The notes below the pieces were generated by a model. It worked only from the letters and a program-made list of their open reading frames with translations, was not told where the DNA came from and made no database searches. Of a DNA stretch of 64,000 nucleotides, positions 43,512-51,573 are shown in pieces. Location: IMG/VR virus record IMGVR_UViG_3300020048_000080; one strand, written 5' to 3'. The DNA comes from a virus (taxonomy: Duplodnaviria; Heunggongvirae; Uroviricota; Caudoviricetes). Positions within the stretch are counted from its first letter, which is position 1; each line of letters starts with the position of its first letter. The translations under genes and the position numbers were made by a program.

Positions 43512-45539
43512 ATGACCTTATCAGAAACTTATATCCTATTACATAACGGTGATTTTATCGCTGTTGCAAACGAAATTAAAAGATTAAATAAAAAATATCG
43601 TGATGGTGATCCCGAAATAACAGATTCCGAATACGACCTTTTACTTAAAACATTTAAATCTGTTGATCCGGAGAATGAAATTTTTACATCAGGTGTTATT
43701 GAAGTTGTTGAGGTTGATTCTGATAGAAAAGAAACTTTAAAATATCCAATGTTTTCTTTAGATAAAGAAAGTTCTATTGAAGAAATCAAGAAATGGTTAA
43801 TCAATAAAGGCTTACCTCTCTCTACTGTTTTAGTATGTACCGCAAAATATGACGGTATCTCAGTTTTAAAAAACGAAAAAACTGCTCTTGTTTGGTCAAG
43901 AGGTGATGGTGTTGAAGGTGAAACAATGCACGAACACTATAAAAAATTAAATGCGAAAAACTCCAATATTGAAATTTATACAATTGGAGAAATGATTATT
44001 CCTAAACCAGTTTTTGCAACACATACATTCTATCGTGATAATGGTGAAGCATTTAGAAATGCTAGAAATATGATTGCTGGTCTTAAAAATTCAGATACAG
44101 TTTCAGATGATTTGAAATATGCAAAACACGTTCGTTATGGATTTGCTAGTGAGGATTTTACAATGAATAAATCTGAACAACTTGATTTTATCTCAAAAGA
44201 ATTGAATCCTGTTCCTTATAAAATATTCCATGCTGATGATTTGAAAGTTGATGAGTTAAATGAACTTTTTATTGAATGGGGTAAAGAATATGACATTGAC
44301 GGTCTTGTGTTAGATATTAATGATAAAGATATAAGAAAAAATTTAGGTCGTGAAAGAAATAATAATCCTTGTTACGCAAGAGCATACAAAAATCCCGAAT
44401 GGTCAGTAATAAATACACCTGCATACAAAGATATAGAATGGAATCTAAGTAAAACTAAGGCTTTAAAACCTGTTGTTCTTGTAGAACCATTTGATGTTGA
44501 TGGTGTTACGATATCAAGGGTAACAGGATATAATGCTAAATTTATCCAAGAAAATCAAATTGGTGAAGGCTCTATTTTAGAAGTTATTCGTTCTGGTGGA
44601 GTTATTCCAAAAATTACTGGAGTTATAAAAGTTGGTAAACTTGCTCTTCCAACCCATTGTCCTAGTTGTAATACAAAATTAGAATGGAATGAAAACGCAG
44701 TAGATTTGGTTTGTAATAACAAAGGTTGTGATGAAATTAATTTTCAAAAAGTTGCATTCTTTTTTGTTCGTTTTAATATTGTAGGATTTGCAGAAAAAAC
44801 TATTAAAAAAGTATATGATGCTGGTTATAATACAGTTGGTAAAATTTTATCAATGAGTTTTATTGATATTCAAAAAATTGAAGGTATGGGAAATCTCTCA
44901 GCAACAAAACTTTTGAAAGAATTTGATGAAAAAATTAAACAAGCACCTTTTGAGGTTATTGGACACGCATCAGGTTGCTTTGAAAATATTGGTTCAAGAA
45001 AACTGAAGATGATTAATGATGGAATTAAAGATATGGTTTATGCACCAGGTAAATCTTATCCTCATTTTGATACATTTAAAGATTCCATTGTAAAAATGGA
45101 CTTGGAATTAATTTCAACAATGTTATATTTTAATGATGTTTATAAAGAAATTTTATCAGTATTGAATTCTATAAAAGGTATGTCAGATAAAACTTCTGAA
45201 AACTTTTTAAATGGTCTTATCTGTTTTAATTCTTTTATGAAGGATTTGAACATTACAATTAGTGATGAACCGAAAGTGAAAAAAGAAACTCCAAAAAATA
45301 ATACTAACAATATGAAAACTACTGATTTAAAAGGTCGTGAATTTGTGTTCACAGGCTTCCGTGATGCTGAACTTAAAAGTTTCATTGAAAGTTGTGGTGG
45401 CGTTGTTAAAGATGATATTAGAAAAAGTACAACAGATTTACTTACAAAAAGTCCTGATACTACCTCAGCAAAAGCAAAAAAAGCACAAGCAATAGGTGCA
45501 ACTGTAACACAGGTTGATGATTTTAAACTTTCATTATGA
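43512..45539 (+). CDS. ligA: NAD+-dependent DNA ligase
   Basis: Adenylation motif 'CTAKYDGISV' (KxDG); Zn finger 'CPSCNTKLEWNENAVDLVCNNKGC'; HhH region; C-terminal BRCT 'GREFVFTGF'. Length 675 aa. Confidence 0.85.
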   Translation: MTLSETYILLHNGDFIAVANEIKRLNKKYRDGDPEITDSEYDLLLKTFKSVDPENEIFTSGVIEVVEVDSDRKETLKYPMFSLDKESSIEEIKKWLINKGLPLSTVLVCTAKYDGISVLKNEKTALVWSRGDGVEGETMHEHYKKLNAKNSNIEIYTIGEMIIPKPVFATHTFYRDNGEAFRNARNMIAGLKNSDTVSDDLKYAKHVRYGFASEDFTMNKSEQLDFISKELNPVPYKIFHADDLKVDELNELFIEWGKEYDIDGLVLDINDKDIRKNLGRERNNNPCYARAYKNPEWSVINTPAYKDIEWNLSKTKALKPVVLVEPFDVDGVTISRVTGYNAKFIQENQIGEGSILEVIRSGGVIPKITGVIKVGKLALPTHCPSCNTKLEWNENAVDLVCNNKGCDEINFQKVAFFFVRFNIVGFAEKTIKKVYDAGYNTVGKILSMSFIDIQKIEGMGNLSATKLLKEFDEKIKQAPFEVIGHASGCFENIGSRKLKMINDGIKDMVYAPGKSYPHFDTFKDSIVKMDLELISTMLYFNDVYKEILSVLNSIKGMSDKTSENFLNGLICFNSFMKDLNITISDEPKVKKETPKNNTNNMKTTDLKGREFVFTGFRDAELKSFIESCGGVVKDDIRKSTTDLLTKSPDTTSAKAKKAQAIGATVTQVDDFKLSL

Positions 45540-47535: not shown

Positions 47536-47902
47536 AATACCACCATTTATTAATAACTCTTTTGAGGACACTCTAAAAGAATTTGTAGAATATATTAGAC
47601 AAGAATATAAAGTTCAAAAAATTATATTTACTGAATCTAAAATATCACCAGATAAATGTGAAGTTGGTGGTTGGTCATCACAACATGTGATATTCAAAAA
47701 ACCTGAATATATTTTTGTTTCTTTAGTATTTATGAGCAAAGATGGTTGGACTAATAGAGGTGGATATGAGGTTTGTACTTGTAAACTATATGATAAATCT
47801 AATATTTTTATTAGATGGAGCACATCAGGAAAAGCAGATAAAGAATTAAACATAAAATTTATAAGAAAAATAAAATTAAAAAACTTAGAGAATCTAATAT
47901 AA
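47516..47902 (+). CDS. hypothetical protein
   Basis: ORF only. Confidence 0.3.
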   Translation: MQSQVYKIPPFINNSFEDTLKEFVEYIRQEYKVQKIIFTESKISPDKCEVGGWSSQHVIFKKPEYIFVSLVFMSKDGWTNRGGYEVCTCKLYDKSNIFIRWSTSGKADKELNIKFIRKIKLKNLENLI

Positions 47903-48213
47903 TGGCGGCACACATTTTTGATATTGATGGAACAATAGTTAATTTTCATAATAATGAATGGATTGATGGCGCTAAAGAATTAATTATTCAATTATATAAT
48001 GAAGGACACAACATAATCTTTGTTACTATGCGAGGTCCTCAAGATGATGGTACAATATGGAGTATTGAAAACACTAAAAAAACAATACTAAAGGACTTGG
48101 ATGAACTTAATATAAAATATACTGTGATTTTTGGGGTACAATCACCAAGAATAATTCACGATGATTCACCAGTTTATGTTGATAAAAGACAAATGAATCA
48201 AAAATATATTTAA
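47902..48213 (+). CDS. small HAD-like phosphatase domain protein
   Basis: N-terminal 'HIFDIDGTIV' DxDGT motif; 'IFVTMRG'. Confidence 0.35.
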   Translation: MAAHIFDIDGTIVNFHNNEWIDGAKELIIQLYNEGHNIIFVTMRGPQDDGTIWSIENTKKTILKDLDELNIKYTVIFGVQSPRIIHDDSPVYVDKRQMNQKYI

Positions 48214-48262: not shown

Positions 48263-48946
48263 ATGGAAACACTAGTGATTGAAATTAGAGCATCCGAGGG
48301 TGGCAACGACTCCAAATTGTTAGTAAATGATTTAACTAACATTTACACAAAATCTTGCCGAAATAATAACTTCTCCTACAAAGTAGAAGAACGTGATGGT
48401 GTTGCAAATATTTGAATATCAGGTAAAAAAATCTTCTCCTATTTTAGCAATGAAAGCGGATCGCACTGTTTTGTGAGGGTTCCTCCCACAGAAAAAAATA
48501 ATAGGGTACAAACAAGTTTCGTAACAGTAGCAATTATGAACACAGAAAAAGAATCTGAGTTCAAATTGGATAGAAATACGGTATTGAAAAGTTATATCAG
48601 ATCCAGTAAAAAAGCGGGTGGTCAAAATTTAAACAAGGTATCCTCATGTGTTCAATTGACACATATTCCAACAGGAATTCAAGTTAAGATTCAAGATACA
48701 AGAGACCAATGTAAAAATGAGGTTATTGCTTGGAAAACATTAACAGAAAAATTAAAATCTATTGAAGATAAGAAAAATTACGAGATAACTAAAAATTATC
48801 GTAATGATCAGATAGGAAATGGAAGTAGAGGTGGAACAAAAAGACGAACTTATAGAATATTAGAAGATTTGGTAATAGATCATATTACAGGTAAAACTTG
48901 TAGATGGAAAGATATACTAAAAGGTAAAATTGATTTACTTTGCTAA
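48263..48946 (+). CDS. PrfH-like class-I release factor homolog (RF1-type, domains 2 to 4 only) interrupted by one in-frame TGA at 48413..48415
   Basis: 50 codons 'METLVIEIRASEGGNDSKLLVNDL...GVANI', then TGA, then in the same frame 'ISGKKIFSYFSNESGSHCFVRVPPTEKNNRVQTSFVTVAIM...SSKKAGGQNLNKVSSCVQLTHIPTGIQVKIQDTRDQCKN...'. It is collinear with RF1 'LEVRAGTGGDEA...IIAKISGDGVYG...[25 protein letters not shown]...[38 protein letters not shown]'. The GGQ motif and a PxT-type tripeptide (PPT) are present. The N-terminal domain 1 is absent, as in PrfH. Confidence 0.6.
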
Positions 48947-50565: not shown

Positions 50566-51573
50566 ATGAGAAAGTTAGCAAGTATTCGCACTATTTCAAA
50601 TATCAGACCAATTGATGGTGCTGATATGATTGAAGTTGCAACAGTAGACAACTGGAGTGTTGTTGTTGGAAAGAACGATTTTAAGATTGGTGATAATGTT
50701 ATCTATTTTGAAATTGATTCATTTTTACCTATTCGTCCAGAATTTGAATTTTTAAGAAAGTCTTCATATAAGAAGTTAGCTGATGGTTCAGAAGGCTTCA
50801 GATTAAAGACAATCCGTCTTCGTTGTCAAATCTCACAAGGTTTGATTACTCCCACATCTATTCTTCCAAATCAAAACTTCCAAGTAGGGGAAGAAGTTAC
50901 AGATATTCTTGGAGTTATTAAGTATGAACCTCCAATTCCAGCCGAATTAGCTGGTAAGGTTATCGGTTATTTTCCTTCTTTTATTCAAAAGTCAGATGAA
51001 GAAAGAGTTCAAAATTTAACCGATGAATATGATGAAATGAGAAAGTATAAGTACTTCGCATCTGAAAAGTTAGACGGTACATCTTCTACATTTTTTATAA
51101 ATGAAAATATTTTTGGAGTTTGTTCAAGAAATCTTCAATTAGAATTTAATCCTGATAATACCTTCTGTAAGATTGCTATTCAAAATGATATTGAAAATAA
51201 GTTGAGAAGTCTTCAACGTAATTTAGCAATTCAAGGAGAAATTATTGGTGAAGGTATTCAAGGTAATAAGTATAAGTTGATTGGACAAAAGTTATTTGTA
51301 TTCAATATTTTTGATATTGATAAGTTTGAATATTTATCAAAGGAAGAAATGGTTAATATGTGTAATCTTTTCAACTTAAATACTGTACCTACAATTTATT
51401 CTGATTTTACATTAACTGAAACTATTGAAGAATTGTTAGAAATTGCAAATGGTCAATCTCAATTAAATGTAAATACAAAGAGAGAAGGTTTAGTTTGGGT
51501 TTCAATTGACTCACCAAAGAGAATTTCCTTTAAGACTATCTCAAATCAATTTTTATTAAAGTACGACGAATAA
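50566..51573 (+). CDS. ATP-dependent RNA ligase-like nucleotidyltransferase (Rnl2/Rnl5-type), N-terminal OB-like domain
   Basis: Motif I 'ASEKLDGTSSTF' (KxDGT/S as in Rnl2 'KIHGTN'); a downstream motif 'IQGEIIGEGIQGNKY' (motif IV-like); 335 aa. The genome already encodes an NAD-dependent DNA ligase. Confidence 0.45.
   Translation: MRKLASIRTISNIRPIDGADMIEVATVDNWSVVVGKNDFKIGDNVIYFEIDSFLPIRPEFEFLRKSSYKKLADGSEGFRLKTIRLRCQISQGLITPTSILPNQNFQVGEEVTDILGVIKYEPPIPAELAGKVIGYFPSFIQKSDEERVQNLTDEYDEMRKYKYFASEKLDGTSSTFFINENIFGVCSRNLQLEFNPDNTFCKIAIQNDIENKLRSLQRNLAIQGEIIGEGIQGNKYKLIGQKLFVFNIFDIDKFEYLSKEEMVNMCNLFNLNTVPTIYSDFTLTETIEELLEIANGQSQLNVNTKREGLVWVSIDSPKRISFKTISNQFLLKYDE

Follow-up and report, generated by a model that had tools for sequence, protein, structure and literature searches.

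A Conserved In-Frame UGA in an RF1-Type Release-Factor Gene of Huge Phages: A Candidate for Programmed Readthrough

Results and Discussion

A Release-Factor Gene Interrupted by a Stop Codon

How can a release-factor gene be expressed if its own reading frame contains a stop codon? This question is raised by a gene residing on a 64,000 nt stretch of phage DNA (Caudoviricetes; IMG/VR record IMGVR_UViG_3300020048_000080), the whole of which is referred to as the window. Translation of positions 48263-48946 (+) yielded a single reading frame featuring a TGA at 48413-48415 as its sole interruption, and the Pfam matches obtained for it, namely PCRF (profile positions 102-194 of 194) and the RF-1 domain, span this TGA. 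Both results confirm an earlier note, prepared from the letters of the window and its open reading frames (ORFs), in which the TGA was described as joining two segments of the same frame. The first segment (ORF1) represents the product expected when ribosomes terminate at the TGA, codon 51 of the gene, and the second one (ORF2) was found to be collinear with RF1 residues through to the C-terminus (NCBIfam, PDB sequence search). Since approximately 8.6% of random codons would be stops at the base composition of the window (26% G+C), the chance probability of the 176 open codons downstream of the TGA amounts to 1.3e-7. Programmed UGA readthrough that would tie the synthesis of the factor to termination efficiency is considered the best explanation for this arrangement and is favored here with moderate confidence.

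Conservation of the In-Frame Stop

The interruption was also detected in independent sequence data. A 27.8 kb contig (run SRR7760390) is 100% identical across the release-factor gene, TGA included, and a 97.4%-identical strain (run SRR28423913, 16 mismatches) retains ATT TGA ATA. Within the phage collection, the 485-735 kb genomes reported by Al-Shayeb et al. 2020 represent the nearest relatives; TGA occupies the identical alignment position in three of them, and in three, additional TGAs are located a few codons upstream. All seven IMG/VR relatives (71-77% identity) possess a stop at the same position (7/7).

Metagenomic matches to the family number in the hundreds. Using patterns outside the recoded region, 80 metagenomic loci were gathered, and all copies were aligned codon by codon; the homolog set analyzed comprises 87 distinct usable copies of 38-100% identity, mostly from huge phages. 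In-frame stops (hereafter also gates) were found in 82 of the 87 homologs (94%), with one stop in 50 copies, two in 32 and none in 5. These 114 stops, i.e., 107 TGA, 6 TAG and 1 TAA, are confined to codons 38, 39, 43, 44, 51 or 55. The alignment position of codon 51 is a stop in 73 of the 87 copies (66 TGA, 6 TAG, 1 TAA) and never TGG, and copies without this stop mostly feature one at codon 38/39 or 43. Past codon 60, the frame is open in all copies except for L087, a truncated copy with TAA at codon 120.

A structure model was available for P0001, an 82%-identical homolog (AlphaFold, AF2; pLDDT 85.8), and places all recoded positions within a beta-hairpin (strands 38-44 and 47-54) following a long helix (15-34). 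Among 90 distinct nucleotide sequences, 105 stops and 0 TGG were counted at the hairpin positions, as compared to 130 TGG and 1 stop elsewhere (p=8e-68), and conserved Trp sites (e.g., codons 70, 157 and 215) are encoded by TGG, never by TGA. These distributions indicate that the stop itself, and not a Trp codon, is under selection at the hairpin sites. No particular amino acid seems to be required at codon 51, because uninterrupted members feature a wide range of sense residues there (K, S, T, I, L, C, F, E, Q, R and V).

The possibility that TAG variants are decaying copies was rejected: L012/L040 contains a 1-nt 5' insertion, but the five other TAG/TAA copies possess intact start codons, and the TAG variants are therefore regarded as genuine. 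In L012 (9991-10011, equal to L040), an extra T after ATG GAA ACA ATT separates the start codon from the frame of the gene; the exact family length (METICN-EIRASEGG) would be regained by a +1 shift at AAT TGA A. A mutation, faulty assembly or a further shifty stop could account for this extra T.

Coding constraint was observed on both sides of the stops. Third-position entropy is far above second-position entropy upstream of, between and downstream of the stops; in ORF1, the codon-position entropies are 0.88/0.51/1.45, and 44% of the codon differences are synonymous. The N-terminal 37 codons represent the most conserved stretch of the gene at the protein level, with A10, E12, G13, G14, D16, K18, D23, Y28 and K30 being invariant in the family alignment, and alignment with uninterrupted homologs showed that the stop substitutes exactly one residue. 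Because the coding signature is present on all segments, the gene appears to be translated as one polypeptide through the stops. The family thus features a conserved in-frame stop whose two flanks are coding-constrained in the same frame, as expected for programmed readthrough.

A pseudogene or a sequencing or assembly error, which the earlier note had listed among three explanations, is refuted by these results and is hardly credible any longer. Pseudogenes are usually recognized by just such a single in-frame stop, and the insertion near the start of L012/L040 points in the same direction; however, the same TGA was recovered in two independent assemblies, one of them from a diverged strain, the stop persists in homologs down to 38% identity, and the other approximately 170 codons (save in the truncated L087) are open in AT-rich genomes and under purifying selection.

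Internal initiation, with only the C-terminal part being functional and ORF1 representing a separate leader peptide or a remnant of what would be a split or two-polypeptide gene, is improbable. Gene callers do predict C-terminal fragments of 134-175 aa from downstream GTG or ATG codons, and in the window a GTG at 48473 opens a 157-aa ORF. However, the called starts differ between homologs, the codon following the stop (ATA, ATT, CTG or CTA) is no canonical start, and the replacement of exactly one residue by the stop, the constraint on the inter-stop segment and the conservation of ORF1, including the invariant tip of its A-x-E-G-G-x-D helix, would have no place in such a scheme. Moreover, the CUU-UGA overlap of the frameshift-type relatives described below is sensible only for a fused product. 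In published structures of RF1 and RF2, this helix tip contributes to stop-codon recognition.

The Gates Reside in a Weak Termination Context

Of the 114 in-frame stops, 72 are followed (+4) by A, 41 by C, one by G and none by T. By comparison, T follows 20 of 55 real TGA terminators of these genomes (36%; p=1e-11 against 0/114 gates), and C follows only 1 of the 55 (p=1e-7 against 41/114). In E. coli, +4 U is reportedly associated with the strongest termination and C or A with the weakest, a result ascribed to Poole, Brown and Tate in 1995. Where Leu follows the stop, it is encoded by CTG, CTA or CTT in 32 of 32 cases and never by TTA or TTG, TTR accounting for 52-67% of the Leu codons in those genomes. 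The identity of the stop differs likewise: TAA occurs at 1 of 114 gates versus 370 of the 538 ORFs of at least 150 codons in the complete relative LR756502.1 (642,428 bp; p=4e-47), the remaining ORFs ending in TAG (100) or TGA (68). The gates are thus placed in a weak-termination context that differs from that of genuine terminators.

Two other recoding events were rejected. No SECIS hairpin indicative of selenocysteine insertion was found, the stop position varies among the six codons named above, and TAG and TAA variants exist. Hopping (bypass) between Ile take-off and landing codons breaks down where Leu follows the stop.

The Product Is a Putative RF1-Type Factor Devoid of Domain 1

Among the NCBIfam models, RF1 was the best-scoring family (167 bits), followed by RF2 (130) and PrfH (57.6). 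The cutoffs of the RF1 equivalogs were not reached (167.1 vs 400 bits for NF001859, 160.2 vs 423.25 for TIGR00019), and neither was that of PrfH (TIGR03072; 166.65). A sequence search against the PDB resulted in 116 bits for RF1, 74 for RF2 and 59.8 and 33 for solved PrfH chains. The P0001 model superimposed on ribosome-bound RF1 with TM values of 0.91-0.92 and 1.8 A rmsd, while PrfH was found at rank 47 of the Foldseek results (TM 0.68). These comparisons indicate that the gene product is not PrfH, so that the label 'PrfH-like' given to it in the earlier note had to be abandoned.

The other features named there were recovered. Domain 1 is absent in all members, the match beginning at RF1 profile position 106-114 (PCRF 102/194); the gene starts at a conserved M-E-T-x-x-I-E-I-R, and the hydrolase gene located upstream does not encode a domain 1. 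The PPT tripeptide (codons 74-76) aligns with the PxT motif of RF1, and both PPTE and GGQ (G119, G120, Q121) are invariant in the family alignment. The protein thus comprises RF1 domains 2 to 4 with a PxT-type tripeptide, GGQ and an RF1-like fold, and it is predicted, with the same moderate confidence as the explanation as a whole, to be a functional RF1-type class-I release factor without domain 1.

The decoding loop reads 'HCFVRVPPTE...RVQTS' in the window clade and 'HRWQR.PPTE...RVHTS' in divergent clades. We take the V and the Q of the window clade to lie at the positions of RF1 Gln181 and His193, and the V of the window clade versus the Q of divergent members to correspond to RF2 Val203 versus RF1 Q181. 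Because V and Q depart from the RF1-like state at these two pocket positions, the codon specificity predicted for the window clade is uncertain.

The TGA had been proposed to replace a conserved Lys. A Lys was indeed found in the phage homolog L005, and presumably E. coli RF1 has one as well, but two solved RF1s feature Met or Phe at the aligned residue; the position is variable rather than conserved.

Genetic Code and tRNA Genes

Within the window, TGA acts as a true terminator: genes of 848, 687, 614 and 607 aa contain no internal TGA, and approximately ten ORFs end in TGA, for instance the DNA ligase gene, whose stop (45537-45539) forms an ATGA together with the start of the following gene. 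When the best frame of each region was compared between the window and 13 related loci (about 200 kb), no conserved coding region other than the release-factor gene had an in-frame stop; two further candidates from this cross-locus screen were discarded, being located within tRNA arrays or at a C-terminus. The genome of LR756502.1 was scanned as a whole. Its 79-129 TGAs with long open flanks, which might have suggested genome-wide or late-gene recoding, turned out to be antisense shadows of intact plus-strand genes, and after filtering of these, the release-factor gene remained as the only convincing TGA-interrupted gene. As judged from these sequences, genome-wide reassignment of TGA (code 4 or 25) is excluded, in agreement with the earlier note.

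A host in which UGA is a sense codon (code 4 or 25, RF2 lacking) would translate the gene normally and leave the TGA at most as a sensor of the host code; this explanation is very unlikely. Standard-code-compatible phages have been predicted for the code-25 Gracilibacteria and Absconditabacteria (PMC10746230), the genomes in question are very AT-rich, and stand-alone TGA terminators are rare (17/538 in LR756502). On the other hand, Al-Shayeb et al. predicted Bacteroidetes hosts for the relatives of >634 kb. TGA occurs in no other gene body of the 642 kb genome, conserved Trp codons are never TGA, and the TAG and TAA gates have no place in such a host. Bacteria carrying the frameshift version, e.g., Myxococcota, use the standard genetic code. 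Backup stops also speak against such a host: 51 of the 68 TGA terminators of LR756502 are part of ATGA start/stop overlaps, leaving only 17 stand-alone TGAs, and what looked like an enrichment of backup stops behind TGA terminators (p=1.7e-4) derived wholly from these overlaps and disappeared for stand-alone TGAs (p=0.5).

A dedicated UGA decoder, such as a phage suppressor tRNA encoded outside the window and possibly non-canonical, would turn the TGA into a temporal switch instead of a termination sensor, with the factor being produced only after expression of this tRNA. This explanation is possible, and it is less probable than programmed readthrough. The phages carry very large tRNA arrays: ARAGORN identified 46 tRNAs in LR756502 by default and up to 69 upon relaxation, and 13-17 tRNAs lie beside the release-factor gene, upstream of it, in L011 and L014. 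Several arrays also contain tRNA-like genes with 6- or 8-nt anticodon loops (ARAGORN 'anticodons' cc, tg, tt, ca, acgg and tcta), two of which, in L082, score as tRNAs in Rfam (50 bits); these may represent frameshift- or nonsense-suppressor-like tRNAs or pseudo-tRNAs. Furthermore, an amber suppressor tRNA(CUA) is encoded near the gene in one sub-clade, the two in-frame UGAs of 32 of the 87 homologs are hard to pass by ordinary leakiness, and Borges et al. reported that only 35-40% of recoded phage genomes had a detectable suppressor.

However, no UCA, CUA or UUA anticodon was present among the 46 default tRNAs of LR756502, and no UCA-anticodon tRNA was found there at the default and 90% thresholds or among the 127 tRNAs flanking release-factor genes; 'tca' calls did appear at the 80% threshold, but they lay away from the tRNA arrays, and most of the 345 calls made at this setting were spurious. 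A tRNA-Trp(CCA) was seen within an array of LR756502 at a slightly relaxed threshold, and a Hirsh-type (A24) variant was ruled out, as this tRNA has U11-G24. A general UGA suppressor would also pass the phage's own TGA terminators, and LR756502 contains no second gene using an in-frame TGA. TGA and TAG occur together in one gene in L068, L077 and L106, and TAA in L107, for which a codon-specific tRNA would be insufficient. The suppressor tRNA outside the window that the earlier note had considered is thus weakened as an explanation by the complete relative, the genome of the window itself being incomplete.

Frameshift-Type Relatives

Recoding at this site was also observed in a second form. 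In the 57% G+C huge phage LR745208.1 (L006; 485 kb), the zero frame reads CGG AGG GGT CTT TGA C, with the stop at codon 38, and homology resumes in the +1 frame. The decoding loop of this phage protein is shortened to 'HRVQRTSNGRIHSS', without PPTE. The same domain-1-less protein is encoded in approximately 57 bacterial loci, with a +1 shift at codon 38 (in some, codon 48) and the loop GGHRWQRVPPTE[KR]RGRVH[TS]S. Carriers are members of the Myxococcota (Minicystis rosea, Pyxidicoccus fallax and Nannocystis spp.) and beta-proteobacteria (Thiobacillus denitrificans). The bacterial shift sites comprise CTT TGA C (34), CTT TAG C (16), CTT TGA G (6) and CTT TAG G (1), and an SD-like (Shine-Dalgarno-like) G-rich element precedes 42 of 52 sites, mostly by 3 nt. 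UGA and UAG swap among close relatives sharing the same decoding loop. No NCBIfam model that the bacterial homologs pass was found, and a search of the plasmid collection for the annotated family name returned only ordinary prfA.

No features of this type were detected in the window gene: its context, AAT ATT TGA ATA, contains neither a slippery CUU nor an SD-like element, and homology stays in the zero frame. Since this position is occupied by a frameshift cassette in GC-rich bacteria and one huge phage, recoding here is a hallmark of the release-factor family. The earlier note had called the gene loosely analogous to prfB; the analogy itself stands, but it is closer than 'loosely' implies, since LR745208 and the GC-rich bacteria carry a prfB-type cassette at the homologous position.

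Proposed Mechanism of Gating

According to programmed readthrough, the full-length release factor would only be obtained if ribosomes read through the UGA at codon 51. Most ribosomes would terminate after 50 codons, and a fraction would incorporate an amino acid, probably Trp delivered by near-cognate tRNA-Trp, and go on translating without a change of frame. The stop would represent a selected regulatory device, placed early in the gene and in a weak context (UGA followed by A or C, never U). Because UGA is an RF2-dependent stop, production of the phage factor would track RF2 activity inversely, rising in infected cells whose RF2-dependent termination is slow or saturated and falling where such termination is efficient. 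The logic would be that of prfB autoregulation, implemented by readthrough here and by a +1 frameshift at the same position in the GC-rich relatives; a regulatory role is supported by the latter, because their prfB cassette is a known sensor of the termination rate. A likely role of the factor would be to supply UAA/UAG termination capacity to an AT-rich phage whose genes end mostly in TAA. Of the three explanations offered in the earlier note, regulated UGA readthrough linked to RF2 is best supported, namely by the conserved stop, its context and the coding constraint.

Several points weigh against this proposal. An RF1-type factor should not read UGA, and the loop would then correspond to cross-regulation by host RF2 and not to autoregulation, the selective logic of which is a matter of conjecture. 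Two in-frame stops are present in 32 of the 87 members; with a readthrough of a few percent per stop, the two-stop yield would be well below 1%, which hints at an efficient decoder or at strongly raised readthrough during infection. No conserved or stimulatory RNA structure was found near the stop (consensus -2.4 kcal/mol, window z-score -0.2), and the backup-stop test for leaky UGA termination in LR756502 was negative after controlling for ATGA overlaps. A suppressor tRNA may reside in the unseen part of the incomplete window genome, and the occurrence of an RF1-type factor beside an amber suppressor tRNA in one sub-clade looks antagonistic. Finally, readthrough and the full-length product, like the decoding tRNA, the response to RF2 and the role of the factor, are inferred from sequence alone.

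A bolder and more tentative proposal would cover the phage and bacterial genes alike. They may constitute a hitherto unrecognized third lineage of bacterial-type class-I factors (no domain 1, PPT loop; huge phages, Myxococcota and other bacteria), gated everywhere by a shifty or leaky UGA or UAG and acting as a backup or broad-specificity terminator that reads its own gate codons. If the factor does read them, the phage version would represent the first natural case of readthrough-based release-factor autoregulation.

Genomic Neighborhood

The window looks like part of a large phage; its cargo comprises an NAD-dependent DNA ligase, an Rnl-type RNA ligase, ClpP and five tRNA-Leu genes (Table 1). 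Since the tRNA-Leu array lies in the window, the release-factor gene is assigned to a translation-related region. In L008, L009 and L010, the same Leu-only array follows the gene at a distance of approximately 9 kb. Most of the space separating the second and third tRNA of the window array is taken up by a stop-free frame of 260 codons (62522-63304). A tRNA-Thr(CGU) precedes the release-factor gene by 29-284 nt in four loci, and tRNAs immediately flank the gene in other relatives.

In a sub-clade of 42-47% identity, the order is tmRNA, tRNA-Met(CAU) (1-2 copies), the release-factor gene with two TGAs and the amber suppressor tRNA(CUA), the latter being located 0.9-2.8 kb from the release-factor gene. 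The tmRNA was found in 3 of the 4 loci scanned, and tRNA-Cys(GCA) follows tRNA(CUA) in 7 of the 10 sub-clade loci, which include L070, L075, L080, L091, L096, L098 and L102 in addition to the tmRNA-bearing ones; the flanks of this sub-clade are too short to decide on TAG recoding. An N-terminal extension in L070 was considered as a possible domain 1 and rejected, as it proved to be an inserted zinc-ribbon endonuclease-like ORF. This homing-endonuclease-like ORF of about 297 codons (L070 1521-2411) lies between the tRNA-Met genes and the release-factor gene, features three 'CPIHGEF...HLKGSGCPxCGG' zinc-ribbon repeats and enters the release-factor start without a stop in its own frame.

Protein-coding neighbors vary between loci. 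A homolog of the HAD hydrolase occurs near the release-factor gene only in L011 and L036. The RNA ligase, which had been put forward as a possible partner in analogy to RtcB, is a real Rnl gene, but it was found near the release-factor gene only in the window and in L012. No RtcB match was obtained in the ten ORFs scanned around the window gene. Among the 76 bacterial loci, no neighbor family recurred in more than six, the neighbors being compared by clustering, with no RtcB model scan. A conserved protein partner adjoining the gene was detected in none of the phage and bacterial loci compared.

Table 1. Coordinates of the release-factor gene, its parts and neighbors in the window, and of selected features in related loci.
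Feature	Location	Strand	Description or basis
Recoded release-factor gene	48263..48946	+	227 codons including the internal TGA; translation, Pfam, NCBIfam
ORF1, codons 1-50	48263..48412	+	First strand, A-x-E-G-G-x-D helix, first hairpin strand
In-frame TGA, codon 51 ('site 0')	48413..48415	+	Context AAT ATT TGA ATA, +4 = A
ORF2, codons 52-227, same frame	48416..48943	+	Rest of domain 2, GGQ domain 3, domain 4
PPT tripeptide, codons 74-76, in 'HCFVRVPPTE'	48482..48490	+	Stop-codon recognition loop
GGQ catalytic motif, codons 119-121	48617..48625	+	Read directly in the sequence
Terminal TAA of the release-factor gene	48944-48946	+	Translation
Small HAD-type hydrolase, upstream neighbor	47902..48213	+	Pfam Hydrolase_6 and Hydrolase_3; PHROG 1238, 415
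Rnl-type RNA ligase, 1.6 kb downstream	50566..51573	+	Pfam PHA02142 OB-fold and RNA_ligase
Five tRNA-Leu genes, anticodons UAA, AAG, UAG, UAA, CAA	62366..63572	+	ARAGORN, Rfam
prfB-type +1 shift site	L006 3090-3115 (LR745208.1)		Homology resumes in the +1 frame
tmRNA-bearing sub-clade clusters	L110 3369-6632; L084 882-5861; L082 994-5260		
Bacterial loci L113-L188	L147 5001-5667 (Minicystis rosea CP016211); L148 (Pyxidicoccus fallax); L185 (Nannocystis exedens); L155 (Thiobacillus denitrificans)		
Odd-loop tRNA-like genes	LR756502.1 390899-390971, 422753-422823, 434082-434155, 435101-435174		tRNA arrays
Odd-loop tRNA-like genes	L011 2162-2244, 2683-2756; L082 2650-2793; L095 541-614		tRNA arrays

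Comparison with Known Recoding Systems

The bacterial RF2 gene, prfB, is the closest parallel, being a class-I release-factor gene with an early in-frame UGA whose full-length product is only made if termination fails. Its consensus, CTT_TGA_C with an upstream SD-type stimulator (PMC3711429), is matched by the GC-rich relatives, in which an SD-like element, mostly 3 nt upstream, is followed by CUU, a stop, and C or G. In contrast, the window gene and the AT-rich phage clade continue in the zero frame by putative readthrough, whereas prfB shifts to +1. The phage factor also differs in being of the RF1 type (PPT, not SPF) and devoid of domain 1, in having its gate in domain 2 (codons 38-55) instead of domain 1 (codon 26), and in the UAG gate of some family members; given that the factor should be unable to recognize UGA, self-regulation by this loop may be lacking.

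Another parallel is the giant-virus class-I release-factor gene known as R726 in Mimivirus and mg280 in Megavirus (Jeudy et al. 2012, PMC3521657); in R726, UGA-C readthrough is combined with a +1 shift at CUU UAG C near the 5' end. R726 likewise belongs to a very large virus encoding its own release factor, in which translation passes internal stops in weak contexts that are rare at gene ends. However, it specifies a factor of the eRF1 type (eukaryotic/archaeal) in amoeba, as opposed to a bacterial RF1-type factor, and combines both events in one gene, whereas the phage and bacterial family uses readthrough or frameshifting in separate lineages. Moreover, the giant-virus events were experimentally tested, while the phage case is known from sequences only.

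PrfH (RF-H), the RtcB-associated rescue factor for damaged ribosomes, resembles the window factor as a class-I paralog without domain 1, of about 200-230 residues and with GGQ; the window factor differs in retaining an RF1-like PxT-type recognition loop and in having no RtcB neighbor near its gene. We know of no recoding site in PrfH.

Phage release-factor genes amid tRNA genes were also described by Borges et al. (10.1101/2021.08.26.457843) as parts of standard-code 'code-change modules', a likeness reinforced by the adjoining amber suppressor tRNA of one sub-clade. Those modules, however, serve genome-wide recoding of late genes, whereas here the release-factor gene alone is interrupted.

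Programmed in-frame UGA readthrough in a bacterial system is also known from the RNA phage Q-beta, in which the coat protein is extended to A1 by near-cognate tRNA-Trp and no special tRNA is involved. There, a fixed minor fraction of a structural protein is C-terminally extended; here, a translation factor is gated and the short product is presumably inactive. With a translation factor behind the gate, readthrough can, unlike in Q-beta, reflect how the termination machinery is faring.

Traces of the interrupted gene are present in published annotations. Al-Shayeb et al. 2020 (PMC7162821) mentioned phage RF1 and RF2 and not the interrupted gene, and their supplementary GenBank files (e.g., 17, 74, 89 and 113) contain a short N-terminal coding sequence, ending in '...KRYGL*', '...SRRGL*' or '...HSKG*', next to a separate 'peptide chain release factor 1' fragment. 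Because these annotations show the gene split, the interruption is present in more clades than those sampled here. In a large protein database, homologs from long contigs are fragments of 134-175 aa, and 'full-length' calls from short contigs have W at the stop positions.

According to a 2016 review (PMC5009743), an early in-frame stop with continuation in the same frame has not been found in RF2 genes, and an RF1 counterpart was unknown; release-factor autoregulation based on readthrough had been proposed before prfB was sequenced, the giant-virus gene being the only parallel cited. No description of the phage or bacterial family was found in the searchable literature, subscription journals lying outside its coverage, and the recoded family thus appears to be previously undescribed.

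Conclusions

Recoding of release-factor genes has hitherto been represented by the +1 frameshift of prfB and one giant-virus eRF1 gene, and the family described here supplies the missing case of a same-frame stop for bacterial-type release factors. Since readthrough and frameshifting occur in one family, the two solutions become comparable on homologous genes. Because gene callers systematically truncate the gene, the translation-related content of huge phages is mis-described at present. The role of a domain-1-less RF1-type factor and its link to UGA now become directly testable.

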